A stretch of DNA of 64,000 bases from Schmidtea polychroa (lineage: Eukaryota). Shown one piece after another: positions 41,229 to 64,000 of the stretch (within the stretch, counting starts at the first letter, position 1; every line of letters starts with the position of its first letter). The notes under the pieces were generated by a model. The model saw only the letters and a program-made list of their open reading frames with translations, searched no databases and had not been told where the DNA came from. The position numbers and the translations under genes were made by a program. The stretch spans positions 122,264,001-122,328,000 of the forward strand of contig CM097886.1 in the NCBI GenBank assembly GCA_044892525.1, in the 5' to 3' direction.

Positions 41229-41318
41229 TGATTGGTCCGCATAAATAGAAAACTAATATATAAGCAGACACTAAAATCATAACAATTACCGTTCATCTAA
41301 CCACTACATTAGGTAAGT
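41229..41318 (+). promoter_or_regulatory. LTR promoter (inverted CCAAT, TATA) and splice donor
   Basis: GATTGG at about 41230, TATATAAG at 41257, AG|GTAAGT donor at 41313. Same elements in the 3' LTR (donor at 63975). Confidence 0.55.
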
Positions 41319-44130: not shown

Positions 44131-44265
44131 GGATTTCCCCGGAAAATGGCCTCCTTCTCCGTAGAGGATTGAACTTCTTCTGTTGTCGTTTTCTACCTTG
44201 GTGTTATTCAGTTCGTGTAAAATTCCTTGTATAAATTCTCTAGGTGTTTATATAGTAAATTTAAT

Positions 44266-44310
44266 AATAAAAATTTTTCGTTTATGTATGTGTTATCTTG
44301 TGTGTTGAAC
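44266..44310 (+). terminator. Putative LTR polyadenylation signal
   Basis: AATAAA at 44266 followed by a T/GT-rich tract. Confidence 0.45.
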
Positions 44311-44921
44311 TTAGAGAATAATATGAACTTGCAAATGGCACTGAGAGTTGCAGAGAATAAGGAGTATTGGTCAATTGGTAATTCCAGCTAGAAATCTTGC
44401 GATGGGCGACAAAAGGAAATGACGTAAGTCCTTCTATCGGCAGTCAGGGTTAGGAAGTCGAGGCCTCAGTAGGGAGTAGTCCGAAGGAGATGGCTCACCT
44501 GCCTACTGGCGTCTCGCCGGCATAGCACAGTTCCAACGTGAAGCGATTCACGGGTGCTATGTTGGAGGGTAGATTATGTACGGGTCCTGCTCGGCAATGA
44601 CCAGAATCAAGACGAGCGTAATCGATATGGGGCATTCATCCTCTGGACTGAAAGCGGTAATGAAGGGGGTCATCCGGGTAGTCACCCGCCAACAGAAACA
44701 GTATTTTAAAAATATCATGGATATTAATGAATAAGGGAGTAAATAAAAATATAGATTATTACTCAATTGTATTAAACTGAATTTAAATTTAACACGTTCA
44801 CCCCGGCGCGGATCACCGGTGGCCCGCACTAACCTGTCCCATCGGGCGGCGTGTACCACCGGTGGGACGTATTTGATTGTGTTGTTAGACGGTACGTAAC
44901 ATTAAATATTTAGATCTTTAA

Positions 44922-45864
44922 CACTGACTGCCGAAACAGAAGATAGTGCGCAATTTTTTATGAATATACCAAGCATTCGCGAGGGAAGTTACGAATATTA
45001 ATTGTATTACTACTTTTTGATACCATTTTTCGAGTCCATTTCAAAAATTTTACACTGCTACGATTTTCGAAACTCATAATTTCACTACGTTTTTGTTTTT
45101 GTTTTGCCTGCGGTGGAAGGAATTTTTTGTTTATTTTTTTACAGTACCACAAATAAATGTATTTTTCTCTAAAAGTTCTTCACCCAAAGTGACACTTGTA
45201 TAATAATTATTAGTAAATAATATGCGGCCCTCAAATAATAAGCCATTTAGTAATCTCATTACTACATCGTGGGAATATGATTTTTCAATGATCGTTACAT
45301 TTTTTCCGGTATAAATTTCGATATTATAAGTGTAACCTTCAGGCAAACATAATTTGTATAACTTTATGTCATACTTATGTCGCTTGCCTTGGATGTATTG
45401 ACGAAAACCTTGACGTCCTCTCCATTGAACCATACTTTTATCGATAACGATATTTTTGCCAGGTTTAATAGCACTTTTGAAAGTATCCACAATTGCTTCA
45501 ACAATTGTTGTGATATAGTTTGGGTCTATGTTGATAGTGTGGTAATATTAATTAAATTGTTATTATTATTGTTTTATTATAGTTGTGGTAAGTTTGCTGG
45601 AGAGTTTAATAGAGCCCAACCGAGTTTCCTTTAAAAAGAACTGTCTCAGGATAGCTGGGATGTTTGTTTGTAGGTTATTTTATACAAGTAACAACTAAAA
45701 TAAATACGAAATGGGTAAATTACAACAAAAAATAATATTAAACTTTCAAAACGTTTATTTAACAATAAATCAAAGACCTTTATGAAATTCACGGGAGTCC
45801 GTGGATCAGAAGGAATTGTTATTGTTGCTTTGTACTTGGATATTCGGCATGAATTTCGACGTTT
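44922..45864 (-). mobile_element. Truncated piggyBac (PGBD4-like) element
   Basis: TTAA|CACTGACTGCC end at 44922. ORF 45131-45490 reads IVIDKSMVQWRGR..RQYIQGKRHKYDIK..FTNNYYTS. The other end is lost at the LTR junction. Confidence 0.85.
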
Positions 45865-46108
45865 TCGAGGCCTCAGTAGGGAGTAGTCCGAAGGAGATGG
45901 CTCACCTGCCTACTGGCGTCTCGCCGGCATAGCACAGTTCCAACGTGAAGCGATTCATGGGTGCTATGTTGGAGGGTAGATTATGTACGGGTCCTGCTCG
46001 GCAATGACCAGAATCAAGACGATCGTAATCGATATGGGGCATTCATCCTCTGGACTGAAAGCGGTAATGAAGGGGGTCATCCGGGTAGTCACCCGCCAAC
46101 ATAATTTT

Positions 46109-46126
46109 TGGGGGCTCAGCCGGGAT
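46109..46126 (+). promoter_or_regulatory. Primer-binding site, tRNA-Pro
   Basis: TGGGGGCTCAGCCGGGAT, 16/18 identical to the canonical Pro PBS TGGGGGCTCGTCCGGGAT, 7 nt after the LTR end CCAACA. Confidence 0.88.
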
Positions 46127-46353
46127 ATACATCAATTTCAATTAATTAGCGAATGCAAATTGACTAATACTTCTCGAATCTTATTATAAAGTACGGTTAG
46201 AAAATGACGAAGTAAAGATATAAATAAAGCAAATTTAAATTTGGGAAAATAAAATAAAAGTAAAACAACTTATAACAATTCAAAAGGGAAATGTTTGCTG
46301 AAACCACCATGTATTAGCTGTATATTATTAAAATATTTTCTTTTCCAATAGAC

Positions 46354-46839
46354 ATGACAGAATCCACAGAACTGATGAAACAACTAAGCAACTTCGTTGA
46401 TATAGAAAGCGATCCCATAAAAACGCTTACCCAGAAAAGAGAGAGAATTAAGAGCATACAACTACAAACAATGGGACAAGCACCAATCGTACCTAACCAT
46501 ATGTTATTAGCCATAGGCCTAAGTCGTGCAGATAGTAAAGTGAACCATGAAACCATATATCAGTGGTATCAGGAAAGATTGAGACACCCCGCATTGAATC
46601 TAGAATACCATCGACTACGAGATCAATTAGATATTATATCCGACATAATCGAACAGAAGATACAAGAAAAGCTCACTAAATTACGAACCTGTCTGTCCTG
46701 CAAACTTCGTCCTATTCGCGTACTGTTCTTGCCCTGTGGACACCTCAGTCACTGCGAAGAATGTGTAAACGATCTAAAACGGTGCACAATATGTAAGCAC
46801 GAGATAAAAGAGACTCATATGGTTTATTATGGCGAATAA
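46354..46839 (+). CDS. IAP/Mdm2-type C-terminal RING protein, 161 aa, no BIR
   Basis: CLSCKLRPIRVLFLPCGHLSHCEECVNDLKRCTICKHEIKETHMVY at the extreme C-terminus, preceded by a short coiled coil. Confidence 0.85.
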   Translation: MTESTELMKQLSNFVDIESDPIKTLTQKRERIKSIQLQTMGQAPIVPNHMLLAIGLSRADSKVNHETIYQWYQERLRHPALNLEYHRLRDQLDIISDIIEQKIQEKLTKLRTCLSCKLRPIRVLFLPCGHLSHCEECVNDLKRCTICKHEIKETHMVYYGE

Positions 46840-47400
46840 AAGTGTTAAAGATTTAATGACATTTATGAACATCGAATTGGTACTGACGATTGAATGAGAA
46901 TAAATGTAATTGTTGTGTGAAATATTATTAAAGTCTTAATTTTATTTTTATTTTTTTTATGGCAAATAAATTCTTGTTATAAGCTGAGTAATCCATGGCT
47001 TTTAATTCTATTTTATTTTTTTTTGAATCAAACGAAAAGAGAACTAAACTAACGTGGAACTAGTCCCAATATAGGCTGTAAGGGTACAAACCGAGCCACC
47101 TTCGGGCGGTACGTTCTATCATGAGAAAAACCCATTGGGAGGGGATAACCAATCAACCTAAGTGAGGAGCGTAGGGCGGGGTACCATCGCAAATGATGAG
47201 AAGTTTCTGCGGTGTGACTGATCACCATGCCAATGCAGAAGTGGATCATCGCAATCGTCGTGCGTTTTGAGCAAGGGGGGAAAGGGAAAACACTCTCAAA
47301 CGGTAAAGATTAAGCCGACACATTAAAAACAGAGGCAGAGAAAATGACAATTTAGGGTAAAAGAGGAAAGAGAAGTAAGAGCATGCAGAGTGAGAGATAT

Positions 47401-47787
47401 TAAGACCGAGCTGTCGAAAAGTCCAGCCGGTCAGGGAAATTAAAACTGAGCTGTGAAAAGTCCAGCCAGTCGGAGATATTAAGGCCGAGCTGTTGAAAAG
47501 TCCAGCCGGTCAGGGAAATTGAAACTGAGCTGTGAAAAGTCCAGCCAGTCGGAGATATTAAGGCCGAGCTGTTGAAAAGTCCAGCCGGTCAGGGAAATTG
47601 AAACTGAGCTGTGAAAAGTCCAGCCAGTCGGAGATATTAAGACCGAGTTGTGGAAAAGTCCAGCCGGTCAGGATAATGAAGATTGAGCTGTTGAATAGTG
47701 CCAGCCAGTCGTAAGATCGAGCTGTCGAAAAGTCCAGCCGGTCAGGATAATGAAGATTGAGCTGTCGAATAGTGCCAGCCAGTCGTA
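47401..47787. repeat. About 10 tandem 39/40-bp units forming alternating 79-bp dimers in the element leader
   Basis: GAG(C/T)TG..AAAAGTCCAGCC units at 47408, 47448, 47487, 47527, 47566, 47606, 47645 and onward. Confidence 0.93.
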
Positions 47788-49096
47788 AAGGCCTAGAAAC
47801 ATAATGAGATAGCATTTAAGCTAATAGTGATGAAAGAGTATTAAAGCTAGCTAGAAAACGAATTGAAGTTGGTTACGAGAATTTGAATTTAGAGAGGATT
47901 AAACGAGCTCGTGGGAGGTAATAATGAAATCTTTTCAGTAAGAAAGAGAAACTGAAAAGGAAAATGAATTAAAGAGATAATGAAAATACAGAATAAATGA
48001 GAATAAATGATGAGTAAAAGAGGAAGGTGATTAATTAATTAAATGGGATCCCAGATAAGTAGACAAGGTTCTACAGAATTTTTTGGTTTAAACCGGTTAA
48101 ACGAATTTTGTGTTGATACAGAATAGAACCCAATAAGGGGAAATGGAGATGAAAGATTAAGTAAAATAGCGGAACCGCGTAAAAGGATTAAGAAAATATG
48201 GGAGGTAATAAGCAGCAACTGACAACGACCTATCGATATTATAAATGATAACTATAGATAATTGATACGACCATATTGATAATTGTTACTACCCCAAATA
48301 GATAATTTAAAATCGACGAAAACTATGGGTTGATGGGTAATTATACTCCACGAAGAATTGTATGGGGAAATGAAAAGGAGCATAACAGAGGCCCTAAAAC
48401 GGTGTCTGTGCTTGAATGTGGCAAAAAGGAATGATTGATTCGTGTAAGCAAATGCAACACGATATCATTTTTTCATTGTAGATATCAATCCAACCAAGTC
48501 AATTCAGAACCAGCTCAAAAGGAATCCAGAGAATATACAGACAATCCAGTAAAAGCGATTCAGAACCCGCACAAAGGAAAATAAACCCATCCGAACACGG
48601 AGGACGACAACGACATCTTTATCTACGACGGAATTATCGAAATACTTAGCATCGACGTATTAGCAGAAGTCAATCAAGGACTCAGATATCCCCTCCGGAA
48701 ATCAGCCGAGAAATTACGCGGAATATTCCTCGAAGGAAACACTATCAGCACCGAACTCGACCAATTCAGCAGCCTCTAACCGTAGAAAAATCTACGTGAA
48801 AAGACAGAAAGGAGTAAGAAAGAATCACGGATAAACCCAACCTTAGATCTTCAAGTAAGCCAGGAGACGTATTATTTTCAGGAGACGAATTACAACAACT
48901 CAAAAGAGGACGATCCATTAAACAACAAAGAGGAATATCACAAGGGGCACGAAGAACCGATCAAATACCCATATTTGACCAAGAAAATCTCGGGTACACC
49001 CCTAGTCGATCTCGAAGCAGAGAAAGTCTATCCGACATCACTAATAGTTTAGCAACGTCAACCGAAGAACTAGCAGCCCAAAGTCTAGTCACATCA

Positions 49097-52000
49097 TTGG
49101 ATAATTTAAAAGAAACAGACGAAGTTAGAACACCAATCATGACGAATGTCGTAAAGACCGACGAGTATAAAGAGAAGTTCAGAGGAGAGCCTTTCAACGG
49201 GAATGCGAACAAGTTGGCAACGTTCATAACCAATTTTGAAGTCTATATCGATGTATGTGGATGGACGTCCGAAGCAATTAGTAAACGGATGCCGTTGTTT
49301 TTATGCGATAGCGCATTAGAAGTGTACTTAGAAGCTAAAGAAAGAAATACGAAGTTAGACAATTGGGAAAGCATCAAAACATTCTTGAGGAAAACTTTCG
49401 GAGCCAGCAAACCAATAAATCAAGCGCTGAGCGAACTGGCAAGTAGAAAACAAAGAGCAAATGAATCCATAACGTTATATGCGAGTGAATTGCGAAGATT
49501 GGCAAAGAAGGCCATGAACGGAAACTTGCCGGAGGAAAATTTAATTGGTTACTTCATAGAAGGACTGCGCCGAGAAGAGGTAAGGGCCTCGGTGGGATGT
49601 CAAATGTGTAAAACACTAGAGGAAGCCATAGATTGGGCCACGAGATGCGAACTACACCTCCCGGCACAAATGAATGTCATGCAGGAGGAGGGGAGAATCG
49701 CAGCCGCAACGATAAAAACGGAAAATGGAGATAACAACAATCACGAACCAAAGATGAATCAATTTATACCGGGTGCGCATCAAATTTTCAAACCACCGCA
49801 AGGACGATCAAACGGGAATAACAGTGAACGCAACAACTCGAACAATGGGAATAATTTTAATAATCGACGAAATACGAACGATAACAAACAATGCCGAACA
49901 TGCGGTAAACCAGGACATTGGGATAGAGATTGTTACCGAAGCGCAAATTGCAATAGGTGTGGACGACGAGGACACACGGAAAATATATGTCAATTGAGAG
50001 GATGTTTTAACTGTGGTCAACCGGGTCACATCTCAAGAGACTGTCGAACAAGGAGCCAACCACAACGACCACCACAGCGAAATAATAATTATGCACCAAA
50101 TCCGCAACGACAAAGTAATCCTAGTGAGGGAAAGCAAATGAATGTGATGCAAGAGATTTCACAAATGAAGCAGATGATGCAACAAATGATGAGACCGAGA
50201 CAAGAACAAGTACCACAACAAACTCAGAATATACGTATGATGAGGAGCACCGAAAATCTCAACAATTATGAAGTGCAACAACATGCACAAGAATGGCAGA
50301 GACTACAAGCTGAAGAAGAGAGGATAAAAAGAGAGCGAATTCAGCAGCGACAAGAACAACCATTACGAATAAATATGATGAGAATGGTAAAGGAGATAAA
50401 AGAGCAATATTGTTACAATTACGGTAAAAATCCAAGAGTTGTACCTATGAGCGAACCAGAGAAACCGACAGAAACGATTACAGCAGCTAAAAAAGAAAAT
50501 CCAGCAACACCGCTAAAAGGAAATCAGAGAATTCAGAAAATATTTTGGAAAAAGATAAAAGATAAAATCGAAAGAGAAAATGAGAAAACAAAAACAGAAG
50601 CAGAAGCGATAAATGATGGAAACGAGAAACAAACTAGTCATTTAACCCATGAAATGGTACAAGAATTAGAATCAGAAGAATTAACGATATTTGAGAATAA
50701 AAAGCTCAAGAAAGTTCCAAGAATGAGAAATTTACGAATTAACATGATGAGGACGACAAAGAAGGTGTTGTCAACAGATGACGATGAGGATTATGTGAGT
50801 AGCCTTGGTGGAGAAATGTTACAGTTAAATGAAAATATCGACCAACTAAGGGAAAAGATCGGAGCAGATGAGGATGAAAGTGAAAGCGACGTAACAAGCG
50901 AAAGCGAAGACGAGAATATCGAAATGAAATTGAGAAAAGAAAGAGAAGAAGCGATAAAACAAGTAAAGGAAATACTTCCAGTGGTGGTCAGAAACCAGGA
51001 ATTCATTGACAGTATACCATACAGACGCTTCATACAAAAGATAATGAAACTAGAAAGAAACGAAAAAGACCTAATACCAAACGAGGAAAAAGCGATAATA
51101 AAGAAGTATATGGAAAAAATGAAGCAAGCAGAAACAACACGCTATGTAATAAAAATCGGAACGAGTAAAGGACTCGAGAGAATATGGATAAAAAACGCCG
51201 TTACAGACGAACTTTTCGACTGGATAAGAGAACATTTGGGCAGCTCGAGAAAGAAAGAATACCTGTATCAATATCAAGGAGAACAAATCAAACCCGACAT
51301 GCACCTAATAGATGCATTGATCTGGCCAGGAGAAACTCAAATATTGAAGTTGCATAAAGAGAAGCAACCAACAAATGTTCACGAATGGGCTAAAGACGCC
51401 AAGGCGGAATACGATTTTAATATTAAGCTGAAGTTGGAACAAATAAAACAATGCACCTTGCGACGAAATCTAGATAAATTAATCAAACAAATCCAAGAAC
51501 AAGTCGAAGACAACTGGGATTTGCTCATAGCAAGACGAACTCCAGACATGCATGAACTAATGAGCCGACTGCGCGATACAGAATTGCTCCGAATGAGTGA
51601 TTGGAGAACCATAAATTTGATCCACAAATACGGAAGATTAAAAGAAACGCAACCACAGAAGTTGGAAATAACCATATGGTTACCAAACGAGGAGAAACGA
51701 CGAATAAAAATGAGCAACCAGAGTACGGTGGACGATTTAGTATCTAAGATAAACCAAGAGATAACGGAAAGAGTCCGAAGCGAGAGCAGCGATGGTATGA
51801 TAGATGAAGGGCAAACAGACAAAATAATAGACGAATGGAATGAGTGGCTGAGAAACAACGATAGCTCATTACCAAGAACAGATAACGAGAGAAATCCGAG
51901 TTACGAAAGGACAAGAGAAGCTGGAACAATGATGGAGAAACGGGCAAAAGGGAGGCCCAAGAAGCAAGGAGAAAAACCAGAATTTAAAACCAGAGAACAG

Positions 52001-52702
52001 TTGAAACAGGAACAAGGACAAGTCAGATTAGAGAAATTGGATAAAATAGTATGGGACCTAAAAGAAGCACAACCAACAATCGAGAGAGGCGAAAAATGGA
52101 TACGAGAGCTAGTAAAGGATATGTTAATAATAACGAATCCACAATTGAGACGATTATGGCAACGAAAAGTGGCAAGCGTAGACGCCAGACAACTATGGAA
52201 TGTAATATCCGGAATAATTCCGAAATTAATTAAAGAGAAGACAAAAACCACTAAAACCGATTGGGAAGAGACAAGAAGAGTAATTGAGCAATTAACTCTA
52301 AACGCAAACGACGACGAACATCATTTAGTAGTATTAACGTATCTAATGTACAATTTGATGGGATTAGCAGCAAGAAAAATACCTAACAAACAATTCGCAA
52401 ATCATGTAGAAATGACCGTTACAATCATAGAAAATACAATCGAACCACATATTATCCGCGCCGGTGGGTGGAAAAGGCTCATACAAGCACCACGAAAAAA
52501 CGAGCAAGAGAGATCAATGCAAATCAGGTTGAAGAAATTGCTAAACGAGTTAGAATGGGAATTGCCATTGAAAGACCCAGTCAGCAGAAAAGCGTCAATT
52601 AATTCACTAATGATGACCATGATGATATGGATGTTATGCACCAGCGGAGCAGCTGGATTCACAATCTACGACTGTGACAATTCGATAATGGGAGAAAAAT
52701 AG
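49097..52702 (+). CDS. gag: Extended Gag polyprotein: capsid, 3 CCHC knuckles, Ubl, CARD-like, Ubl, Bcl-2-like, internal signal peptide and glycoprotein N-terminus
   Basis: FNG..F..NFE..W..L..RKQ..ESI..Y..EL..YFIEGL capsid; CRTCGKPGHWDRDC, CNRCGRRGHTENIC, CFNCGQPGHISRDC. Frame is open from 48818; first ATG at 49139. Confidence 0.9.
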   Translation: MDNLKETDEVRTPIMTNVVKTDEYKEKFRGEPFNGNANKLATFITNFEVYIDVCGWTSEAISKRMPLFLCDSALEVYLEAKERNTKLDNWESIKTFLRKTFGASKPINQALSELASRKQRANESITLYASELRRLAKKAMNGNLPEENLIGYFIEGLRREEVRASVGCQMCKTLEEAIDWATRCELHLPAQMNVMQEEGRIAAATIKTENGDNNNHEPKMNQFIPGAHQIFKPPQGRSNGNNSERNNSNNGNNFNNRRNTNDNKQCRTCGKPGHWDRDCYRSANCNRCGRRGHTENICQLRGCFNCGQPGHISRDCRTRSQPQRPPQRNNNYAPNPQRQSNPSEGKQMNVMQEISQMKQMMQQMMRPRQEQVPQQTQNIRMMRSTENLNNYEVQQHAQEWQRLQAEEERIKRERIQQRQEQPLRINMMRMVKEIKEQYCYNYGKNPRVVPMSEPEKPTETITAAKKENPATPLKGNQRIQKIFWKKIKDKIERENEKTKTEAEAINDGNEKQTSHLTHEMVQELESEELTIFENKKLKKVPRMRNLRINMMRTTKKVLSTDDDEDYVSSLGGEMLQLNENIDQLREKIGADEDESESDVTSESEDENIEMKLRKEREEAIKQVKEILPVVVRNQEFIDSIPYRRFIQKIMKLERNEKDLIPNEEKAIIKKYMEKMKQAETTRYVIKIGTSKGLERIWIKNAVTDELFDWIREHLGSSRKKEYLYQYQGEQIKPDMHLIDALIWPGETQILKLHKEKQPTNVHEWAKDAKAEYDFNIKLKLEQIKQCTLRRNLDKLIKQIQEQVEDNWDLLIARRTPDMHELMSRLRDTELLRMSDWRTINLIHKYGRLKETQPQKLEITIWLPNEEKRRIKMSNQSTVDDLVSKINQEITERVRSESSDGMIDEGQTDKIIDEWNEWLRNNDSSLPRTDNERNPSYERTREAGTMMEKRAKGRPKKQGEKPEFKTREQLKQEQGQVRLEKLDKIVWDLKEAQPTIERGEKWIRELVKDMLIITNPQLRRLWQRKVASVDARQLWNVISGIIPKLIKEKTKTTKTDWEETRRVIEQLTLNANDDEHHLVVLTYLMYNLMGLAARKIPNKQFANHVEMTVTIIENTIEPHIIRAGGWKRLIQAPRKNEQERSMQIRLKKLLNELEWELPLKDPVSRKASINSLMMTMMIWMLCTSGAAGFTIYDCDNSIMGEK

Positions 52703-52713
52703 TATCAAAGAAG

Positions 52714-55700
52714 GTGTTGGCGTATTACTGTGGACAATACTCATATTCAACCCTCATATTACCTGGATTAGATAAAGAAATAGTACCTATACAACGGGAA
52801 GACTGTAAAGAGCTTTTTAGAACCGGAGCGATGAGAATCCGGGATGGAGTAACAATACACGGACAAAGCGGAATGATCAAGACGGAAAGTATCTACATAG
52901 CCAAACGGGTAAAATCAACCGATGGATCATGCAACGGAGGTACATATACGATCCGAGGAGAGGTAATATCCGGGGTAGTAGTAATCGAGTCCTACACAGT
53001 GGAGTTGAAGGAATACGAAGCGCAATTCGACGCAAATAATTATCAAATGAAAACCAACCCAGCATGCAGAGCTACGGAAAACGTATGTAGAACGGGAATT
53101 TCGACTATAATATATGAAGCCAACACCCAAAAATGCCGTCTCCAATTGTTAAAAAGTGCTTTGTTCAATGAAGTAAAAGGAGAAATTTATGAAAACGAAG
53201 ATGATGATGAAGAGAATGGAAACGTAAGGATGCGAAATGGGAAACCAGTTCCACCATCCCCCAAAGAAAAGAGACTCACAACACAAAAAACAAATACCTG
53301 GATAGCCAACGGAAGTTATATACCCCCAGATATCGTTGGACAACAAGCAGCTCTAACCATGACACAAAATATGTATCCACAGTTACCAAGTCAACCAGGA
53401 GTGAACTATATGCCAACCCGAAGAACGAAAAGCGTAGACCAAGCTGATGACGTCAGAACAATAGCAGTAATGAGTTCACCAGGAGGCGCGGCAGTAACAG
53501 TCATGATCCAAATCAACGGGAAAGAGACAAGCGCAATGATAGATACCGGAGCAAATGTATCAGCAATAGCAATAAACCAAATACCCAGTAAATATTGGAA
53601 AGATATCGAACAAACAACTATCCATATTATTGCATGCAGTAAAGAAACCGTAGACGTAGTAGGAAGATGGTGGACTACGTTACGATATCAAGATAATGAA
53701 ATTGAAACGTATCTAGCGGTGATACCCAAACTGAGCGAACCATGTATAATCGGAACGGATTTAATGCCGGAATTGTTCAAGGAAGTAGTAATCGATTTAA
53801 CAACAATGTGTCTAAAAGACAAAATGGGTAGAATATGCAAGATGAACGCAATAATTAGATGCCCGGAGAAAATAAATGTACCAGCAAAATCACAGATGAT
53901 ATGTCAAATAAAAGTGGATACAGGAATGGAAGGAGAAGCCATTTTTGAGCCAAGCAAATCATTCGAAAAACGACGAGAATTACCATTAGCAAGAGAAATA
54001 ATAACAATAAATGAAGAGGGGGAAATACCAATTAACATCACAAATTTCGAAGAGGAAGATAAGATCATATATGAAAATGAAAGATTGGGTAGATTGACAC
54101 CCATGATAGACATCGAATTGCCAAAAATCACCAATGAATCAACGAAAGCTGAAGAATTATGGATAATTGATAGCACCTTGCTAACGGAAAAGGAGAAGGA
54201 AAGACTCCAACAACTATTGATAGAATATAAAGATATATTCGCAATTTCGGATTTGGATTTGGGAGCATGTGAGGTCACACTACACGCAATACCATTAATA
54301 GACGAAACTCCAATTGCGTTACGACCATACAAACTAGCAGAGAAGCAAAAAGAGATAGCCGAAGCCGAAGTACAAAAAATGCTAGATGCACAAGTGATCG
54401 AACCAAGTTGTTCGCCATGGCAATTTCCAGTAGTCATGGTGAAGAAAAAAGATGGTACTCAGAGATTCTGTATCGATTATCGGAAACTAAATGCAGTAAC
54501 AAAAAGAGACACATACCCGTTACCAGACATCAATGAGATGTTACTTATGCTGCAGGGGGCCGCATATTTTACGTCTCTAGATCTAAAGAGCGGATATTGG
54601 CAGATCAAAGTCAAGGAGGAAGACAAAGAGAAAACAGCATTCACATTGGGCCGAGATCTATACCAATTCAGGAAAATGCCGTTTGGACTAACCAACGCCC
54701 CAGCATCATTTCAGAGATGTATGAATTTTGTCACACACGGGATCAAGCAGTGTATGGTATATATTGATGATTTATTAATATATTCAGCAACATTCGAACA
54801 ACATTTGGAAGACATTAGAAACGTGTTCATCCGATTACGACAATGGAAATTGAAACTCAAACCATCCAAATGTGATTGGGCAAAAGAAGAGGTTACGTTC
54901 TTAGGACACATAGTGTCAGCAAAAGGCAAAGAACCAGATCCAAGAAACATAGAAAAAATAAAAACATGCCCAGCACCAAAAACCGTCACTCAAGTGCAAG
55001 AATTTCTCGGATTATGCGGATATTATCGTAAATTCATTAAGAATTACGCAGGCATTGCGAAACCAATCCAGGAATTAGTGAAAAAAGATATCTCATTTAT
55101 TTGGGGTGCAGAACAGCAAAAAGCATTCGAAACACTACGAGACAAATTGATTGAAGCTCCAATACTAGTACATCCTGATTTCAAAAAACCGTTCCTGTTA
55201 GCAACAGATGCCAGTGGATATGCAGCCGGAGCAATATTAGGACAACTCGATGAGGAAGGAAAAGAAAGAGTGATCGGATATTACAGTAGAACGTTTAAGA
55301 AGCATGAGAAAAACTATTCCGTAACTGAAAGAGAAGCGTTAGCAATAATACAAGCGATTAAACATTTTCGATATTTGTTATGGGGACACGAAATATGTAT
55401 CACAACGGATCATCAACCATTGGTATGGCTCGGACAGCACAAAGAAGCTTCAAGTAGGTTGATGCGATGGGCAATGCAGTTACAAGAATATTCACCGTTC
55501 ATAAAATTCAAAGCGGGAAGAGCAAATGCCAATGCAGATTGTATGTCCAGATTTATTTTTCCAGACTTAGTAGATCACGAAATGCAACGAATATGTCTGA
55601 TGGTAGCAGAAGATTTGGATTTTTGTCAATTACGGAAAGACCAACAAGAGGATGTAGAGTTGAAACAAATAATCGAGTATGTGAAAACCGGGAAAGCAGA

Positions 55701-57138
55701 GGTATATGAGAAGGATCAAAAATTGAAAGAACATATGGATAAACATCGGCATCGATATATTATTGAGAAGGATTGGTTATTGATAATGGATGGGGAAAAG
55801 AGACTGATGTGCATCCCCGAGAATAGATGTAAAGATCTACTAACACAATATCATGATGGAAGACTCGGAGGACATATGTCATCTAAAACAATTGCTGGAA
55901 TACTAATTGCATGGAGGAACCCGATCAAAAACGATTATATGGTAGATATAAACGAAACATTTACCAAAGGAGAAAACACCTTGATGAGAGAAGCGATGAG
56001 AGGACATCACCTATTCGAAATTCCAAATCAACTACTACAACGTGGCATAAAGTTTTCAAATCACAAAGACGAACAACTAATCAGAAAACGAATTACCAAC
56101 TTCGAAAAAGCTATATCTCAATTTACCGATAAAGTACAAGTAAAATTTTGGGAAACCGTGAGTGTATTATATATGATGGAAACTATGAATAACATTCGAG
56201 AAAACTACCTAAGTATTATTCAAGTTCTAACGGCAGAGGAACGCGTTAACAGTTCGAACAAGAAAAAGATAAAAATCAAGAAAATAACAGCAAGAGAGTC
56301 TGAGAAACGAGTCGATCAAATAATAAACGATGTAGCAACAACAAGTAAACCAAAGACAATAAACTCCGACCAAGAGATAGTAGTACGTAAGGCTAAGGAA
56401 GTATTCTTTGAAGAAATGCAAGATCTATCTGATGAAGCGATACTAGCAAAAATAATAAAAACAGTACACACCTACGCAAGAGACCAGACCACAAATTTAG
56501 ACATAGGAAAAATAAAAACATTTATACCACTAGCATTCACCTTACCAACAAAAGATTCAAGAACACCATTACAACAAGCCATTCTAGCAGCAAAGGAAAA
56601 CAGAGCAATAACCATCGTAAGAATTCTTAGAGACTTCGGAGAAGAATCGAATGCAAAAAATGAACAAGGAGAAACAGCAATGATGTATGCAGCAATAACA
56701 AATATACACCCGAAAACCTTACATATACTACACCAATCAGGTTCGAGACTTGACGAAATATCAAACGAAGGAAATTCTACCATGGATTGGGCAACAATAC
56801 AACCAAACTTGGAAATGATTAGATTCATTTGTAAAAATGCTACAAGAACTGAGGTAGAAAATATCTGTAAAAATACGTCACAATTCCAGTGGGATACGAT
56901 ACGGAAAAATTTGGAAGCCATGAAGTTATTGTTAACCTGGAAAATACCACAAAGCAATAAATATGCAATAAACATAAATGAGTTCTACGAAAACGGAGAA
57001 AATGCTATGGTTAAAAATACGCTGACAAAAGGAGGAACTCCGAAAATCATAATGATCATATTGAACAGAGAAGACCTCAAATTCACGCAAAATCAAACGA
57101 ACAAAAGCGAATCGGAAAACATCGTCGAATACAATTAA
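52714..57138 (+). CDS. pol: Glycoprotein fragment + Pol (PR, RT, RNase H, truncated IN) + ankyrin repeats
   Basis: IDTGA at 53539; YIDD at 54758; ATDASG..ERE..TDH RNase H; YHDGRLGGH then loss of the IN core; GETAMMYAA and GNSTMDWA ankyrin-like repeats. Confidence 0.93.
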   Translation: MLAYYCGQYSYSTLILPGLDKEIVPIQREDCKELFRTGAMRIRDGVTIHGQSGMIKTESIYIAKRVKSTDGSCNGGTYTIRGEVISGVVVIESYTVELKEYEAQFDANNYQMKTNPACRATENVCRTGISTIIYEANTQKCRLQLLKSALFNEVKGEIYENEDDDEENGNVRMRNGKPVPPSPKEKRLTTQKTNTWIANGSYIPPDIVGQQAALTMTQNMYPQLPSQPGVNYMPTRRTKSVDQADDVRTIAVMSSPGGAAVTVMIQINGKETSAMIDTGANVSAIAINQIPSKYWKDIEQTTIHIIACSKETVDVVGRWWTTLRYQDNEIETYLAVIPKLSEPCIIGTDLMPELFKEVVIDLTTMCLKDKMGRICKMNAIIRCPEKINVPAKSQMICQIKVDTGMEGEAIFEPSKSFEKRRELPLAREIITINEEGEIPINITNFEEEDKIIYENERLGRLTPMIDIELPKITNESTKAEELWIIDSTLLTEKEKERLQQLLIEYKDIFAISDLDLGACEVTLHAIPLIDETPIALRPYKLAEKQKEIAEAEVQKMLDAQVIEPSCSPWQFPVVMVKKKDGTQRFCIDYRKLNAVTKRDTYPLPDINEMLLMLQGAAYFTSLDLKSGYWQIKVKEEDKEKTAFTLGRDLYQFRKMPFGLTNAPASFQRCMNFVTHGIKQCMVYIDDLLIYSATFEQHLEDIRNVFIRLRQWKLKLKPSKCDWAKEEVTFLGHIVSAKGKEPDPRNIEKIKTCPAPKTVTQVQEFLGLCGYYRKFIKNYAGIAKPIQELVKKDISFIWGAEQQKAFETLRDKLIEAPILVHPDFKKPFLLATDASGYAAGAILGQLDEEGKERVIGYYSRTFKKHEKNYSVTEREALAIIQAIKHFRYLLWGHEICITTDHQPLVWLGQHKEASSRLMRWAMQLQEYSPFIKFKAGRANANADCMSRFIFPDLVDHEMQRICLMVAEDLDFCQLRKDQQEDVELKQIIEYVKTGKAEVYEKDQKLKEHMDKHRHRYIIEKDWLLIMDGEKRLMCIPENRCKDLLTQYHDGRLGGHMSSKTIAGILIAWRNPIKNDYMVDINETFTKGENTLMREAMRGHHLFEIPNQLLQRGIKFSNHKDEQLIRKRITNFEKAISQFTDKVQVKFWETVSVLYMMETMNNIRENYLSIIQVLTAEERVNSSNKKKIKIKKITARESEKRVDQIINDVATTSKPKTINSDQEIVVRKAKEVFFEEMQDLSDEAILAKIIKTVHTYARDQTTNLDIGKIKTFIPLAFTLPTKDSRTPLQQAILAAKENRAITIVRILRDFGEESNAKNEQGETAMMYAAITNIHPKTLHILHQSGSRLDEISNEGNSTMDWATIQPNLEMIRFICKNATRTEVENICKNTSQFQWDTIRKNLEAMKLLLTWKIPQSNKYAININEFYENGENAMVKNTLTKGGTPKIIMIILNREDLKFTQNQTNKSESENIVEYN

Positions 57139-57143
57139 GGGAA

Positions 57144-58508
57144 TTGGTAAAAGAATGGAATAGAAAGAGACATGCAGCAACAGGAAGAAAAGAATTTGAA
57201 TTCGAAGCAAAATTAGCAAGAAATAGAGTGCTAACAGCATATCGCAGATTGTTGAACGATATAAATGTCGAGGACGACATTTTAAACGACAGCGGGGGAG
57301 ATAAAGACGATAAAGACGACAATAATGATGAAACAGGTCAAAACGGGAATGGAGAGAAAGAGGAATCAGAGGAGAATAATCAAGGGAATAACGACTCAAG
57401 TATAAAAAAGGAGGAAAATAAGCCGGGAAACCGAACAAAGGAAGAGGAGAAGACGAATAATGGGAAACAGAGGGTATGCCTACTTTTTACCAACAAGGAA
57501 ATGGAGACAAATATGATGGTAATGATACTCATACTAACAATGGTAGAAATGATAACAGCCCACGGTGGAATGAGAACGATATAGGAAGCCAAAGAAACGG
57601 AAAATAAAGACAACAATGAGGAGGAACTAAAACAAGAAAAGAAAAAGCAAGTACAAGAACAACAATGGGATCTGAAGGAGGAATGGAATCTAAAAGAAAG
57701 GTGCATACTAGGAAGATGTGTGTCGAGAGCATATCAGAGACTAGTGTTAATAAATGAAGATACAGAACCGATAACGGAAGTAAGAATACAAGAAGCGTAC
57801 CGAAATCGAGACGGGAAGAGAATAACGAAAGTCAAAGGGAAGGAGGTACACCTGGGAAAAGGAGGTGAGGTAGTGATAACGCAACTCCAGCCAAGAAAAG
57901 AACACAAAGTCTGCATTTCAAGATTAAGACCGGGTGAAGACTGTCTACAATATGTAACACAGCAACAACCTCCAAAAGAATACACAGTATGCATCTGGAG
58001 AAAAGATACAGCGAGAGAATGTCGACGATACCCTGGGAAAAGAGGGAAGAAAAGAAAAGGCAACGATGAGAAAGAGGAGGAAGAAAAGCGCAAGAAAACT
58101 AGTGAGAAATATCAAGATAATTACGTGTCAGAAGAAGAAATGGAAAAAATACAAAAAATGGCAAAGGAAGGGATCAATGAGGAAATAACGAAAATACGGG
58201 GATTGGAGAAAGGAAAAAGCCAAACAGAGAAAGATGCAGAAACAGCAAGTACAATAACAGGCAATGGAAACTCAGAGACCATCAGTGTAAAGCAGATGAT
58301 ATGGATCAGCGGAATAATAATAATCGGAGCGTTCATAACTATAACGGGGGGGACGATAAAAATAATCCGAGATAAACAACAGCGTAACAAACTCGAAATG
58401 ATCAGAGCTAGAAATTTTCAGCATCGAGTAAAACGACCAAATAATATCAAGCAGGAACAGTGGGTGGAGGCCTGGAATGCTCAGCGCCCTCCAAACTCAC
58501 GTATATAG
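57144..58508 (+). pseudogene. Polyprotein tail: acidic linker, signal peptide, FN3-like ectodomain, TM, short tail (in-frame TAG at 57582)
   Basis: ORFs 57144-57584 and 57720-58508 share one frame with only one stop between them. Signal MMVMILILTMVEMITAHG; ITQLQPRKEHKVCI and QPPKEYTVCI motifs; TM at 58296-58367. Confidence 0.6.
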
Positions 58509-58677
58509 AAAGGATTATGACTGTATATAGATTGTAAAAAGTAAGTATATAATATTTATTTATATAACAGTATTCTATATCTCTATATAAGCGCGGTATC
58601 ACTATTATATAATGATGGGGACAATTAATATAAAAATAAAATTTAGATAAGAGTTGAAAAGTGTATATAAATTAGGA

Positions 58678-59037
58678 ATGGAGCAAGGAAATAACGAAAT
58701 GAACCACAACACAGTAACTGAAGAATTATGGAAGCAACAATGTGCCGTATTAGCACAATTAGTGTCTAATTTACAAGAACAAGGATTGACGATGCAAAAG
58801 AACCTAATCGAGAGTATGAACAGAGGATTTAGTTATTTGAAAATAATTGAAGACCAGAGGTTAAAAATCGAACAAATGCACAGGGAAATAGAGAGGATAA
58901 CCCAATATAGCCGGAGATAGGAAATCGAATTGGAAAGAATGGTGGAGGAAGCAGAACAGACAGAAATAGAAGATTGGTCAGAATGGCTAATGAGTAGAGA
59001 GGAGGGCGGACACGAAGCCGACTCTTCCGAACCATAG
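58678..59037 (+). CDS. Small coiled-coil accessory ORF with one internal TAG (58918)
   Basis: ATG at 58678 after an acceptor. Coding-like Glu-rich frame continues past the TAG to 59037. Confidence 0.45.
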
Positions 59038-59122
59038 ACCAAACCTAAATTAAAATGTAAATAACTGTAAATAAAATCTCGAGCCTGTATCGATAAGAAC
59101 TATATGTATATATAATTATAGA

Positions 59123-60511
59123 ATGGATAAACGACAAAGAGAAGAGTTCAGAGAGATTGTCGAACAAGTCCGAAAATCTACAACGATCAAAATACACAAA
59201 CATGTCATGTGTGGAATATGTGAAAAGTTGTTAAAGGAACCTCACCAAACCCAATGTGGATGTAGATTATGTAAGGAATGTATCAGTGAAACAATAAAAA
59301 ATAGACCACAGTGGTGTCCGGTGTGCAGAGAGACACTAATATCGAGTTTAGAAGACACTAACGAGGATAAAGCCGCAGTGAAAGACATGCTAAATACCAA
59401 TCTGGGATGCAAAAATACCCCATGCGAATGGAAAGGAGTAATATGGAAAGTAGTGCAACATATGGGAGAATGTATGTACAAAATCGGCCAATGTGAAAGG
59501 TGCCATAAAACTATTCGGGCAAGCGAAGAAAAAGAGCATCAAAACCAGTGTGAAGAGAGATTAGAAAGATGCGAACATTGTGGAGAATTAGATACGTGGA
59601 AAAATCTCACCAGCGAACATCACAATGTCCAAGAGGAAAAGGTATGTGCAGAGTTCTGCGGTGAATGCCCGAACAGATGCAACGAAAGGGGAATAATAAA
59701 ATTAGCTCAGCACCTAAAAGAATGTGAAAAGAAAAGAATGATATGTGTGCTAGGTAAATGGGGCTGTCCAACACTATTACACCGAGGAGACCTACCACAC
59801 CACCTAATGGAAAATGTAATAACTCACGCAGAAATGTGGTCAACTGCGTTACAAGAAAGCGAAGAGAAAGTAAAACAAATGAGAATAGAGATAACATCGT
59901 TGAAAGGGTTAGTCAAAGAACTACTAGAAGAAAGAGAAGCGTTCGAAGAAGCCCGAGCTAACATAAAAATGCAAATAAATCGTATAGAAATTAGCAACAA
60001 TCAGGCCAAGGTGCTACATCAAAAGATAACAGAGATAAATCTAAACGAAGTAATGCCAACAGCACCCTACATATGGAAGATAACGGGAATAAAAGAAAGA
60101 ATACGAAAAGCAAAAACCGGAGAAGATACAAGACTAACAAGCCCCGCATTTCATTCCTGGAAAAACGGATACAAAATGAAAATGAAGGTATACCCCAACG
60201 GGGACGGAACCGGATTAGATACGCATTTTTCGATCTTCTTTATGCTCTGTAAAGGGGAGTATGATGAAATATTAGAATGGCCGTTCCAGGCAAAAATCGA
60301 TATTACTCTAATGAACAACCAAAGTATACATGAGCAAAGCTTCAAAACAACGGGGAATCAGATAGCTTACCAGAGGCCCCTCAACGAAGAAGGAGCAGCA
60401 ACAGGAGCACCGACGTTCATCTTACAACAAAGGGTAGAAGATATGGCGAGAAATGATACCGTATATATCAAGATGACGGTTCGGAGGGAAGGAAAGAGTA
60501 GAACCGAGTAA
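59123..60511 (+). CDS. TRAF: TRAF-family protein (RING, Zn fingers, coiled coil, MATH), intronless, element-borne
   Basis: CGICEKLL..CGCRLCKEC..CPVC; C.N..C.W.G..H..C fingers; MATH YIWKI..SPAF..GYKM..YPNGDG..THFSIF..KGEYD..WPF. Confidence 0.95.
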   Translation: MDKRQREEFREIVEQVRKSTTIKIHKHVMCGICEKLLKEPHQTQCGCRLCKECISETIKNRPQWCPVCRETLISSLEDTNEDKAAVKDMLNTNLGCKNTPCEWKGVIWKVVQHMGECMYKIGQCERCHKTIRASEEKEHQNQCEERLERCEHCGELDTWKNLTSEHHNVQEEKVCAEFCGECPNRCNERGIIKLAQHLKECEKKRMICVLGKWGCPTLLHRGDLPHHLMENVITHAEMWSTALQESEEKVKQMRIEITSLKGLVKELLEEREAFEEARANIKMQINRIEISNNQAKVLHQKITEINLNEVMPTAPYIWKITGIKERIRKAKTGEDTRLTSPAFHSWKNGYKMKMKVYPNGDGTGLDTHFSIFFMLCKGEYDEILEWPFQAKIDITLMNNQSIHEQSFKTTGNQIAYQRPLNEEGAATGAPTFILQQRVEDMARNDTVYIKMTVRREGKSRTE

Positions 60512-60688
60512 CCAGGGTGAATAACGTTGTATATAATAAACCTGTATATATCGGTGTATATAACCAGTAAAATAATATATAATAGTAGTATGGGAACCCC
60601 AATTACGATAATCCAAAAATAAAGCGAAAATTTGTTGAATAATAAAATTGATACAAACTGAACTTATCAATATTCCTAATTTAGAATA

Positions 60689-61735
60689 ATGACACAAGAG
60701 CAACCAACCACCAATAATGAGGGCCCAGTGACAATCAGAACTAGAGAGAAACATAAAAGGAAGTGGACTACGGTAATGTCCCAATTAGCCAACTTAACCA
60801 GAAATCACATTGAGGAGGCTAGGGAATATGAAAATAATAGATATCAGTGGACCGTAAATAACTTGAGAGCCGAAGCCGAAGCATGCAAGAGAGCCTCTAA
60901 GTGGGCGTCATTGGAAAATACCCGCCAGGAAGCACACAGTCACTACCTAAAACAATTAGTGCAGGAGGCACGAAAACGGTTGACTGATGAAAATACCAAA
61001 CGAGAAGCCGAAAAACAAAAGGAAGGGAGAAAAATGAATCACCTATTGGCGGAAGCCCGAAAATGGAAACGACAGAACAAAGAAATGAAGAAGGAAATGA
61101 AAGAATTGCCCATGAGATTAGAGTACGAGAGCGAGCAGGGTAAATGGGAGGAAAATCTAGTCATAAAGGAAGAGCTAAAACGGCTAAGAAAGATCGCGGC
61201 TCGGAGTCAAACCTGGCAGACCAAAGCCATGGAGTTTGAAAGACATTTAGCCATGAAACTCTCCATAAGAGAGCACGAGAATGCTGCGATGGAAGAATTG
61301 ATACTCCAGCAGTCAGGGCGAGTCGGGGAATTAATAAATCAAGTCACCGAGCTAAAACGAGATGTCAATGGATATCAGGGAGCTCTAGAACAAAGAAACA
61401 TGGTATTGGTGGGAAAAAATAAAAAACTAGAAAACGAAAGAAAAATGTATAACGAAAATCTCAAAAATCTGGAGATAGAAATCGAGAAATGGAAGGGCGA
61501 CGAAAAGATAAAAGAGTTTGAGAGGCAGTTAAAGGTAAAAGACGAGGAGACGAGATACCTCACCTATTTGCTCGACGAAGAACTGAACACTACCAGGGCA
61601 CTCAGAGATGAAGTTCAGGAACTGAGAGCTCAAATTCCCCAATATTACACCCCTTATGACCCTATTGCCATCCAACTACAGACAGCGGTCGAGAGCGACG
61701 AAGGATACGGGGGTCAGGAGGAAACCTTCGTATAA
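60689..61735 (+). CDS. Orphan coiled-coil protein, 348 aa
   Basis: Intact ORF, E/K/R/L heptad-rich, acceptor before the ATG. Confidence 0.75.
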   Translation: MTQEQPTTNNEGPVTIRTREKHKRKWTTVMSQLANLTRNHIEEAREYENNRYQWTVNNLRAEAEACKRASKWASLENTRQEAHSHYLKQLVQEARKRLTDENTKREAEKQKEGRKMNHLLAEARKWKRQNKEMKKEMKELPMRLEYESEQGKWEENLVIKEELKRLRKIAARSQTWQTKAMEFERHLAMKLSIREHENAAMEELILQQSGRVGELINQVTELKRDVNGYQGALEQRNMVLVGKNKKLENERKMYNENLKNLEIEIEKWKGDEKIKEFERQLKVKDEETRYLTYLLDEELNTTRALRDEVQELRAQIPQYYTPYDPIAIQLQTAVESDEGYGGQEETFV

Positions 61736-61910
61736 GGGCTAATAAAAAATTCAAAAATTGGGACGTATATCCCAAACAAAAAAAAAAAAAAAAAAATTAA
61801 TAGTACAGTAAAAGTATTTGAGGGACTGTAACCCTGTGTAAATAAAAACGATATAAATGTATAAGTATAAGTCGCACTGTAGCGCATGATTAATTGTAAA
61901 TATTATAGAT

Positions 61911-62615
61911 ATGAAGATTGAAGAGATAGTTGAACCCATGAGTGAAATAGAAGAAGGAGAGATTGTAATAGAAGTCGCAGAAACACAAATACTAAAGAGC
62001 GAATTACGAGAAGAGAAACGAGAAAACGAGAGATTAGTGAACAAATATATGGAAGACCGGAAAATGATTAAAGTATTAAAGAAAGAATGCAAAGTGCTAG
62101 GAAAAGTAAAGAGAGAAGCAGAAGAGAGAAATGAATGGCTGCAGGAACAACGAACACGAGGAAGAAATTGGGAAAGGATTGCAGCGGAATTATGGCAAGA
62201 GAGGGCAAGCTTCAAAGCAGAAGAAGTAATCCAAGACTACTGGAAAACAGAGGCGAAAGAACGCCAAACAACTATAAATAAATTAAATCAACAATTGGAA
62301 GAAAAACAAAGAGAAAGTGAAAAAATGAAAAAATGGATCCGCAAATACAAAGAAATCGAGAGACAACAACAACAACGAAACCCTCCACAAGAGAACGAAC
62401 AAGATTTCCTACAAATCGAGTTAAAAAGAAATCTCGACAAGAAACGAGAAGAAATAAGCAAACTAAAAATGGAGATAAGACACCTAAAAAGGGAAGCCCG
62501 TGAAAAGGATCGGCAATTAGAGATGATGTCGGAATTAAGACACCGGGTCATTGAAGCGGAATCTACCCTGATGAGAAATGCCGAAAATAATCCCAAAGGA
62601 GAACCATCTAACTAA
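61911..62615 (+). CDS. Orphan coiled-coil protein, 234 aa
   Basis: Intact ORF, E/K/R-rich, acceptor before the ATG. Confidence 0.72.
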   Translation: MKIEEIVEPMSEIEEGEIVIEVAETQILKSELREEKRENERLVNKYMEDRKMIKVLKKECKVLGKVKREAEERNEWLQEQRTRGRNWERIAAELWQERASFKAEEVIQDYWKTEAKERQTTINKLNQQLEEKQRESEKMKKWIRKYKEIERQQQQRNPPQENEQDFLQIELKRNLDKKREEISKLKMEIRHLKREAREKDRQLEMMSELRHRVIEAESTLMRNAENNPKGEPSN

Positions 62616-62654
62616 AAGCAATTAAAGCCAGTGTAAATAATATAATAATAATAG

Positions 62655-63266
62655 ATGTATATTAGTACAATGCGGTATGGAATCGTGATAACGGTAATGG
62701 TATTGATAAATCACCTGATGGAGAAACAACAATTAAACGCTCAACTGACAAGCATACGAGATCACCGCAATCGAAATCAAAAAGCCAAACCAGAACCTTG
62801 CCAATGCCAATACCCCAGTACAATAAAAACCAACATCCTCCACAGTATCCAGTCAACTCGGTCATATGTTAATAACGTCAGAAGTCTGTGCAAAAATCAC
62901 CCCATATGCCGAATGATGGACCGAAAAATACTCGAACAAGTCCAACACTTCGATCAGTTGGAACAACAAATACAACAAGAAGTGTTCGAAAATCCGGCCG
63001 AGACAACAGAAACACCCTCAAATAACAGCGACACCCACTACCTTCTCTACGTAGTGATCGCAGAAACTATCTTGTTATGCCTCATAACCTTCCTAAAAAT
63101 CCTCGAAGTTAAGAAAAAATGTCAGAGCTCGAAATCCAGAGCCACCGTACAAAACCCAGCCGAAATAACCAATGTTATCCAAACCACAAGCTCACCCAGA
63201 TTAAACCATAAAGAATCTCCTCAACCATCGTTCAATCGCCCAATCTACCATAACACCAGTTCGTAA
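62655..63266 (+). CDS. Orphan membrane protein, 203 aa
   Basis: N-terminal hydrophobic stretch, several Cys, second hydrophobic segment YLLYVVIAETILLCLITFLKIL. Confidence 0.68.
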   Translation: MYISTMRYGIVITVMVLINHLMEKQQLNAQLTSIRDHRNRNQKAKPEPCQCQYPSTIKTNILHSIQSTRSYVNNVRSLCKNHPICRMMDRKILEQVQHFDQLEQQIQQEVFENPAETTETPSNNSDTHYLLYVVIAETILLCLITFLKILEVKKKCQSSKSRATVQNPAEITNVIQTTSSPRLNHKESPQPSFNRPIYHNTSS

Positions 63267-63556
63267 TTGTAGCAGCAAACCCCAACCAGAACCATCAGAG
63301 TGACCAAACAATGCCAGAACTGAACTAAAAACACTATGTTGTGAAAAACTTTGTTGTGTATATAAACCATCACCATAAGTGATGCCTGCTTGGTCTTGAT
63401 TTGACCTATATCTTATTAATAAAATTTTATTGATGTTTATAATTTTGTTAATCACTATGTTATCTTTTTATGAATGTGCTTATTTTTTTCTGAGAGAATA
63501 AGAGTAACTCAAGTATGTAATTGCGGGACGCAATTTTGTCGGGTCCCCAAGTGATT

Positions 63557-64000
63557 TGTTGGGCTGAGTCGAAGGGTATCGGAGAGATTAGGTTAAGCAT
63601 AACGAAACTAAAATTAAAAATAAAATTAAAATAAACAAATCTACGAAACAAAGTAGAAAGGAAACAAGAAAAATAATAATTAGAAAATAAGAATTAAAAC
63701 AAAAAAATATAAAAACACGAAAAATTGAAATAGGACAATAAAATGACGGAAAATGACGTAAAATGCAGTAAATAATAAGGAAATTAAAGAAAATAAATAA
63801 AAAATACAATAAAAATAAGGAAAATAGGAGGAAATAGCTCAAAAACAAGGAAAACAAATTAAAGTAATAAAAATAAGCGGTACTCCATTCTGATTGGTCC
63901 GCATAAATAGAAAACTAATATATAAGCAGACACTAAAATCATAACAATTACCGTTCATCTAACCACTACATTAGGTAAGTGTATTTTAATTAACAATGAC
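63557..64000 (+). mobile_element. 3' LTR (first 444 bp)
   Basis: Starts TGTTGGGCTGAG; matches 40895-41338 with 2 substitutions seen. Confidence 0.93.

Follow-up and report, generated by a model that had tools for sequence, protein, structure and literature searches.

The 64,000-nucleotide stretch of Schmidtea polychroa DNA analysed here (GenBank assembly GCA_044892525.1, contig CM097886.1, positions 122,264,001 to 122,328,000 of the forward strand; hereafter the window, numbered from its first letter) holds a giant Ty3/gypsy retroelement with long terminal repeats (LTRs), which by its gene content resembles the planarian Burro elements. Its internal region encodes a polyprotein, damaged in this copy, and a set of small accessory open reading frames (ORFs). 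The polyprotein modules, including ubiquitin-like (Ubl) domains and an envelope glycoprotein (env), are as follows.

48818..52702, forward strand: polyprotein part 1, ending in the signal-like segment of env
49139-49663, forward strand: Gag capsid, in part 1
49886-50053, forward strand: CCHC knuckles, in part 1
50918-51358, forward strand: helix+Ubl unit 1, in part 1
51374-51649, forward strand: helical unit 2 (earlier called CARD-like), then half of the second Ubl and a deletion at 51806
52034-52564, forward strand: Bcl-2-like domain, in part 1
52678..57138, forward strand: polyprotein part 2, holding deletions at 52700, 53289 and 55887
about 52705-53187, forward strand: env remnant, in part 2
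53542, forward strand: DTG of the protease (PR), in part 2
54760, forward strand: YIDD of the reverse transcriptase (RT), in part 2, followed by RNase H (RH), with the integrase (IN) core deleted at 55887
56584-56841, forward strand: ankyrin repeats, in part 2
57015..58508, forward strand: C-terminal part of the polyprotein, delimited as in relatives, disconnected in this copy by a change of frame near 57.1 kb and a stop codon at 57582-57584
57507-57566, forward strand: signal-like segment of the C-terminal tail
near 58290-58350, forward strand: transmembrane segment of the C-terminal tail, the ectodomain lying between it and the signal-like segment

Across the family these modules form one polyprotein of about 4,730 codons, arranged as Gag, three helix+Ubl units, Bcl-2-like domain, class III env, PR, RT, RNase H, IN, ankyrin repeats and a type I membrane-like tail. 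This frame is unbroken in one of the five fully sampled copies, and the PR-RT-RH-IN domain order is present in relatives. Env lies in frame between the Bcl-2-like domain and PR, with a transmembrane segment ahead of the protease; it matches both halves of PF24664 in the window's family and nearly the full model in related families, and the env-like glycoprotein noted in the original prediction is confirmed as a class III env, most of it deleted in the window copy. Hydrophobic segments occur at two points of the polyprotein, before env and before the C-terminal membrane tail. The PR-RT interval, the published position of a dUTPase, holds an 82-amino-acid conserved segment that is 71% identical to the sister family and gave no Pfam dUTPase match. 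The Gag frame is open for 107-115 codons ahead of its first Met, without an ATG, in 22 of 23 loci (48818-49138 in the window), hinting at a spliced-in or non-AUG start.

Seven small ORFs accompany the polyprotein in the family, namely an upstream RING ORF, five downstream ORFs and one LTR ORF.

43390..44130, forward strand: LTR orphan ORF, 246 aa, dN/dS about 0.12
46354..46839, forward strand: RING ORF, 161 aa, with a C-terminal IAP-type RING and no BIR; YAG just before the ATG in 21/21 copies
58678..58920, forward strand: small orphan ORF, 80 aa here
59123..60511, forward strand: single-exon TRAF, 462 aa, with RING, zinc fingers, coiled coil and MATH, dN/dS 0.12
60689..61735, forward strand: charged coiled-coil-like orphan, 348 aa, dN/dS 0.08
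61911..62615, forward strand: charged coiled-coil-like orphan, 234 aa, dN/dS 0.10
62670..63266, forward strand: membrane orphan, 198 aa, with a signal-like stretch at the N terminus and a single transmembrane segment; evolves fastest of the ORFs, dN/dS 0.29

The family is large, with at least 569 occurrences of a 31-nt exact LTR-primer junction in the genome. A search with the TRAF MATH domain returned 1,480 candidates, a set that takes in other families too, and the 150 scored were all 82-100% identical. Three full-size copies measure 29.5-30.5 kb, LTRs are about 3.8-4.2 kb long, and LTR pairs are 99.7-100% identical in 5/5 copies. Of the 25 copies that we sampled from the TRAF hits, five were taken whole; the other 20 were each covered by one 5' and one 3' stretch that do not include PR-RT-IN. 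All 25 have the 3' ORFs and the LTR ORF (one partial), 22 have the first Ubl and the helical unit, and the RING and the Bcl-2-like domain are present in 21 each. Selection was assessed by median pairwise Nei-Gojobori dN/dS over non-independent pairs with dS >0.15 and a defined ratio, matches with <60% cover being excluded. The medians were 0.013 for RT, 0.020 for Ubl1, 0.023 for the Bcl-2-like domain, 0.032 for the capsid, 0.046 for the helical unit, 0.060 for the ankyrin repeats, 0.063 for env, 0.083 and 0.095 for the coiled-coil ORFs, 0.12 for the RING, TRAF, LTR ORF and membrane tail, and 0.29 for the membrane orphan.

The IAP-type RING, full TRAF, ankyrin, Bcl-2-like and Ubl segments predicted from the window are confirmed and common to most of the 25 copies (dN/dS 0.02-0.29), and every module lies far below 1 rather than at neutrality. 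These sequence comparisons indicate that purifying selection acts on every module and that the family is young. They also dispose of the notion that the additional ORFs are host DNA enclosed by accident, or passengers evolving neutrally, between two LTRs, for which a host genome rich in TRAF/MATH genes, some of them single-exon, might speak. The ORFs stand in unchanged order in 21-25 of the 25 copies, at the dN/dS just given, and the sister family keeps homologues in matching order at about 25-45% identity. Because the modules recur across copies with dN/dS far below 1, we reject chance cargo and count this explanation as refuted, its probability being negligible.

Compared with five end-to-end copies, the window copy lacks four segments, at 51806 (about 1.34 kb), 52700 (0.13 kb), 53289 (1.37 kb) and 55887 (1.67 kb), some 4.5 kb in total. 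Lost with them are a piece of the Gag extension, the bulk of env and the core of the integrase, and the second deletion shifts the reading frame. Further lesions are the frame change near 57.1 kb, the stop at 57582-57584, which is absent from 25/25 copies, and the shortening of the small orphan ORF to 80 aa, against 119 aa in 24/25 copies. With no integrase core and little of env left, the copy is defective and unable to replicate alone. The deletion ends show microhomology of 2-8 nt and no GT-AG, which rules out spliced-out introns, and they probably stem from template jumps at these microhomologies. The deleted form was also considered as a spreading non-autonomous subfamily, an idea we set aside: for the one junction searched, only the window spanned it among 40 scored matches.

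The boundaries of the element were located by aligning the window, extended by the following 10 kb of the contig, against itself.

40895..44694, forward strand: complete upstream LTR, 3,800 bp, TG...CA ends, GAAA 4-bp target duplication, 5 mismatches to the 3' LTR
44695..45864, no strand: host flank of 1,170 bp, copied from behind the 3' LTR, outside the element
45131-45547, minus strand: piggyBac-type transposase fragment inside this flank
45865..46101, forward strand: 237-bp terminal piece of the 5' LTR, 2 mismatches to the 3' LTR
46109..46126, forward strand: 18-nt primer-binding site, complementary to the 3' end of host tRNA-Pro(TGG) with CCA added
47389..47788, forward strand: leader tandem array of about 79-bp units
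63557..64000, forward strand: start of the 3' LTR, which runs on to 3,800 bp past the window end

As predicted, a 3.8-kb LTR flanks the element on each side and, despite its deletions, two 3,800-bp LTRs and the internal region total about 25.05 kb, with a GAAA duplication. The proposed start at 45865 does fall on LTR sequence; this is merely a 237-bp LTR end joined to host flank, and the complete LTR lies at 40895-44694. Both 3,800-bp LTRs are trailed by one and the same 1,170-bp stretch of host DNA and are bracketed by the GAAA target duplication. Because the upstream LTR plus flank differs from its 3' counterpart at just 6 of 4,971 positions, it must be a recent duplication or an assembly join. 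The near identity and the shared GAAA site leave some room for a join of a solo-LTR allele with a full allele, in place of any true tandem duplication; a true duplication followed by LTR-LTR recombination would yield an equal layout, and we put the join forward only tentatively. A second family copy is flanked by a likewise 4-bp duplication, TTAT. No clear purine run was found in front of the 3' LTR of the window copy that could serve as a polypurine tract.

Burro1/GYPSM1 and Burro-2, -3 and -4 are giant gypsy-like LTR retrotransposons of Schmidtea mediterranea (Jurka 2007 and Grohme 2018, as cited in PMC6431247; statements on published work refer throughout to the available portions of the cited texts). 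Burro/GYPSM1 carries RING, Smc, MATH_TRAF_C, BIR, ankyrin, BCL2-like, Ubi2/SUMO-like and dUTPase-like domains, with env between BCL2 and PR, and has been proposed as possible proviruses interfering with apoptosis and ubiquitination (PMC6431247). The window's family shares the size of about 30 kb, one long polyprotein of close to 4,800 aa, CCHC knuckles in Gag, Ubi/SUMO-like and BCL2-like domains before an in-frame env that lies between BCL2 and PR, ankyrin repeats, accessory ORFs, RING and TRAF/MATH. Unlike Burro1/GYPSM1, it has neither MATH in the polyprotein nor BIR, and its TRAF is solely a free-standing full gene 3' of pol; its LTRs measure about 3.8-4.2 kb, those of a Burro1-type family found in this genome 5.6 kb. 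In that sister family, MATH lies between Ubl2 and the Bcl-2-like domain within a frame of 4,791 codons, and the downstream ORFs encode TRAF, BIR+RING and coiled coils. This order is the published Burro1 layout, and the RT is 88% identical to that of the window's family, which we accordingly place, on sequence, as a young sister family of Burro1. The suspicion of kinship with the known Burro elements was borne out in size, polyprotein, env position and cargo. The combined gene set, on the other hand, is not a novel system: for planarian Burro/GYPSM1 the toolkit has been described before, with env placed between Bcl-2 and protease, as has the provirus idea (PMC6431247). The present analysis adds the evidence of selection, the three helix+Ubl units and the Pumilio-type motifs, and drops the CARD claim. 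A literature search on Burro, GYPSM1, TRAF with retrotransposon, and Burro with Pumilio or splice acceptor found no account of spacer motifs, helix+Ubl repeats or cargo selection, some of which the ORF maps in figure 2A of PMC6431247 may show; Burro is named once in the available text of PMC11410931.

Other relatives extend the comparison. A Burro-like element of Dugesia tigrina likewise has no MATH in its polyprotein and TRAF/MATH in an accessory ORF, which lies upstream there and downstream in the window's family; a midasin-like homology is also reported for the D. tigrina element (PMC6431247). Six S. mediterranea GAG-ENV-POL elements, Smed_errantivirus_1-6, have an HSV/gB-type env and share the Gag-env-pol order and class III env (PMC13524379); the window's env remnant is closest, by eye, to Smed_errantivirus_5 (about 89/161 residues). 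In the available parts of that paper, the main text contains no 'Bcl' and supplement 1 gives no tRNA type, as against the 18-nt tRNA-Pro site here. Three further gag-env-pol families in this genome, with RT 48-51% identical, keep the Bcl-2-like domain before env, and in five families it stands directly ahead of the env signal. Loci L120, L128 and L132 represent three smaller gag-(helix+Ubl)-Bcl-2-env-pol families, two of which match the env rows of Smed_errantivirus_3 and _2 by eye. The relatives in this genome point to a Schmidtea-like planarian as host. Poxviruses, herpesviruses and baculoviruses carry anti-apoptotic and TRAF-directed genes. The module classes they have captured (Bcl-2-like, IAP-type RING, ankyrin) are similar, by analogy only, the carrier here being an LTR retroelement.

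The segment at 51374-51649 had been read as CARD-like. Sequence searches gave no CARD or death-fold match, fold-search lists were filled by Ubl, and the predicted first helix of 45 residues argues against a six-short-helix death-fold bundle; on this predicted structure the segment is a helical unit, one of the three helix+Ubl repeats, and CARD is without support. A resemblance of the helical units to TFIIS N-terminal-like bundles was discarded, as a profile search gave no such match. For the Ubl-Bcl-2 region, a HMMER search against 1.84 billion representatives returned no match and a single-sequence fold reached a pLDDT of 37.9, too low for use. A PDB sequence search with the C-terminal ectodomain found no match, leaving its FN3-like look unconfirmed.

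A planarian TRAF/MATH expansion has been described (PMC6109357, PMC7586133). In a MATH tree (44 rows), element TRAFs and planarian host single-exon TRAFs formed one 100/100 clade, whereas in a full-length tree limited to frames of at least 430 aa (14 rows) element TRAFs (92/93) stood apart from host TRAFs (75/86). With the two trees in disagreement, host single-exon TRAFs could not be taken as domesticated element genes. At least 10 TRAF-like genes of the host, each within one long frame, stand apart from any Burro context (L062-L069, L073, L107, L108, L159); in a separate cluster on C2, MATH occupies an exon of its own. The membrane orphan had no homologue among 26 candidates and did not resemble the sister family's last ORF (E 0.17). 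Two types of it exist, with about 50% identity to each other; which type a copy carries is independent of the adjacent ORFs, suggesting recombination between subfamilies.

The six spacers between the 3' ORFs (58509..63556, forward strand) together carry 12 TGTA(A/T)ATA motifs. Every spacer has at least one, each motif reads in the sense direction, and an AG stands 1-4 nt ahead of every ATG. For this motif, which was picked after inspection of the sequence, dinucleotide shuffles gave 0.64 instances (0/500 reached 12), and TGTATA/TGTAAA led an unbiased k-mer count, next after poly(A). The pattern is repeated in 20/20 further copies, and the sister family spacers hold 7 motifs versus 0.75 expected; none occurred in leader, LTR or coding DNA, or in 2,400 nt behind eight host TRAF genes. 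UGUA is also the CFIm 3'-end signal, and a rival reading takes the spacer motifs as such signals rather than Pumilio sites. The sequence UGUANAUA is a PUF/Pumilio site, and neoblast maintenance requires DjPum (PMC5855632). A YAG stands 0-6 nt before the ATG in 5/6 internal accessory ORFs in every copy examined (21/21, 25/25); of the 419 ATGs that the internal region holds, 19% have one, which gives the background. At the small ORF the usual trinucleotide is AAG (YAG in 7/25), and the LTR ORF has its AG further upstream (2/25). A like acceptor pattern precedes the accessory ATGs of the sister family. In runs only guessed to be RNA, one contig each has a loose end in poly(T), lying 54-73 nt ahead of the 3' LTR (window 63503; L025:6656), possibly an antisense polyadenylated RNA. 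A more elaborate scheme, which we consider unlikely, would make the 3' cassette a post-transcriptional switchboard, with accessory genes spliced to a common leader and Pumilio elements gating TRAF and survival genes or soaking up Pumilio, thereby tying an anti-death programme to the neoblast-to-differentiated transition.

On balance, the window probably holds a non-autonomous copy, with internal deletions, of a young Burro-type Ty3/gypsy element of roughly 30 kb, whose family keeps env together with host-like RING, TRAF, ankyrin, Bcl-2-like and Ubl modules under purifying selection, likely blunting stress and death signalling in the cell that hosts its replication. From the domain families involved, the cargo may block death or immune signalling. 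Of the earlier picture of a complex retrovirus-like element, the shared and selected cargo stands and the novelty of the gene set does not; the CARD-like reading has no support, and this copy cannot replicate alone. Reverse transcription would be primed by tRNA-Pro, and the polyprotein would be cut by signal peptidase at its two hydrophobic segments and by the element's own protease, with env mediating membrane fusion. Accessory ORFs may be made from spliced subgenomic RNAs, given the conserved AG before each ATG, and their output restrained via the Pumilio-type elements in the spacers. The TRAF and the BIR-less RING might then act as ubiquitin ligases or decoys, and the Bcl-2-like domain might bind pro-death proteins.

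Several observations weigh against this reading. The BH1 motif of Bcl-2 proteins is of the NWGR type; it was not seen in the Bcl-2-like domain, which falls below the Pfam cut-off and is so diverged that BH3 binding is unproven. BIR was not found in the window's family, whose RING ORF carries a RING only. Purifying selection is a sign of function without saying which, and the copies were chosen by TRAF hits with mostly open frames, so that the intactness counts lean high. No run recorded as RNA contains the stretch, and among the listed contigs of runs merely guessed to be RNA, which cover the element, there was no GT-AG joint. In S. mediterranea, BURRO1 is expressed upon PIWI loss, and its RNAi left the smedwi-2(RNAi) phenotype unchanged, which lends no support to a strong host effect (PMC8532177).

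The cargo could instead serve the element's own cycle, in ubiquitin-dependent processing, trafficking and budding of Gag and env or in handling of the endoplasmic reticulum membrane. The Ubl, Bcl-2-like and ankyrin modules form part of the polyprotein itself, with a pace of change as low as that of Gag (dN/dS 0.02-0.06), the Bcl-2-like domain precedes the env signal in all five families, and the missing BIR and unsupported CARD fit as well; the full TRAF and the sister family's BIR+RING, however, are free-standing ORFs resembling host signalling proteins, and we judge this account somewhat unlikely. A further proposal, in print already and compatible with the signalling role favoured here, takes the family for a genuinely infectious virus that passes through an extracellular phase, its genomic copies being proviruses. 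The reach of env over PF24664, its transmembrane segment and dN/dS of 0.06, and two further membrane-type proteins speak for it; env might serve only cell-to-cell passage within one animal, and an infectious virus is possible rather than probable.

Further repeats were observed in passing. The host's tRNA-Pro(TGG) genes form a long tandem array with a 475-bp period (L160-L163, G000:C1:130.90-130.95 Mb), with 2,164 pattern matches genome-wide, and a non-LTR RT element sits within the LTR of a close relative (L002:2926-8140). Another dispersed repeat, which resembles elements of Polinton/Maverick type, has its own Bcl-2 ORF above the Pfam cut-off (E 1.3e-7), with a TBP-like ORF, an A32-like ATPase and an rve integrase nearby (L134-L138, e.g. 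L138:4860-5315, L134:7232-9770). Elsewhere in the window lie a 2,238-bp tandem repeat (5201-10340), a dispersed 0.95-kb repeat, 96% identical (3007-3952 and 24744-25717), and a 144-bp satellite (31310-32473).

Interference by Burro elements with host apoptosis and ubiquitination was suggested in print as early as 2019. There is now evidence of selection for every module, and the conserved RNA signals make the expression mechanism open to ordinary RNA-seq. Planarian TRAF/MATH transcriptome counts (121-282 transcripts, PMC7586133, in whose available text 'transpos' and 'retro' are absent) may include element-borne genes, alongside the large host cluster that exists too.

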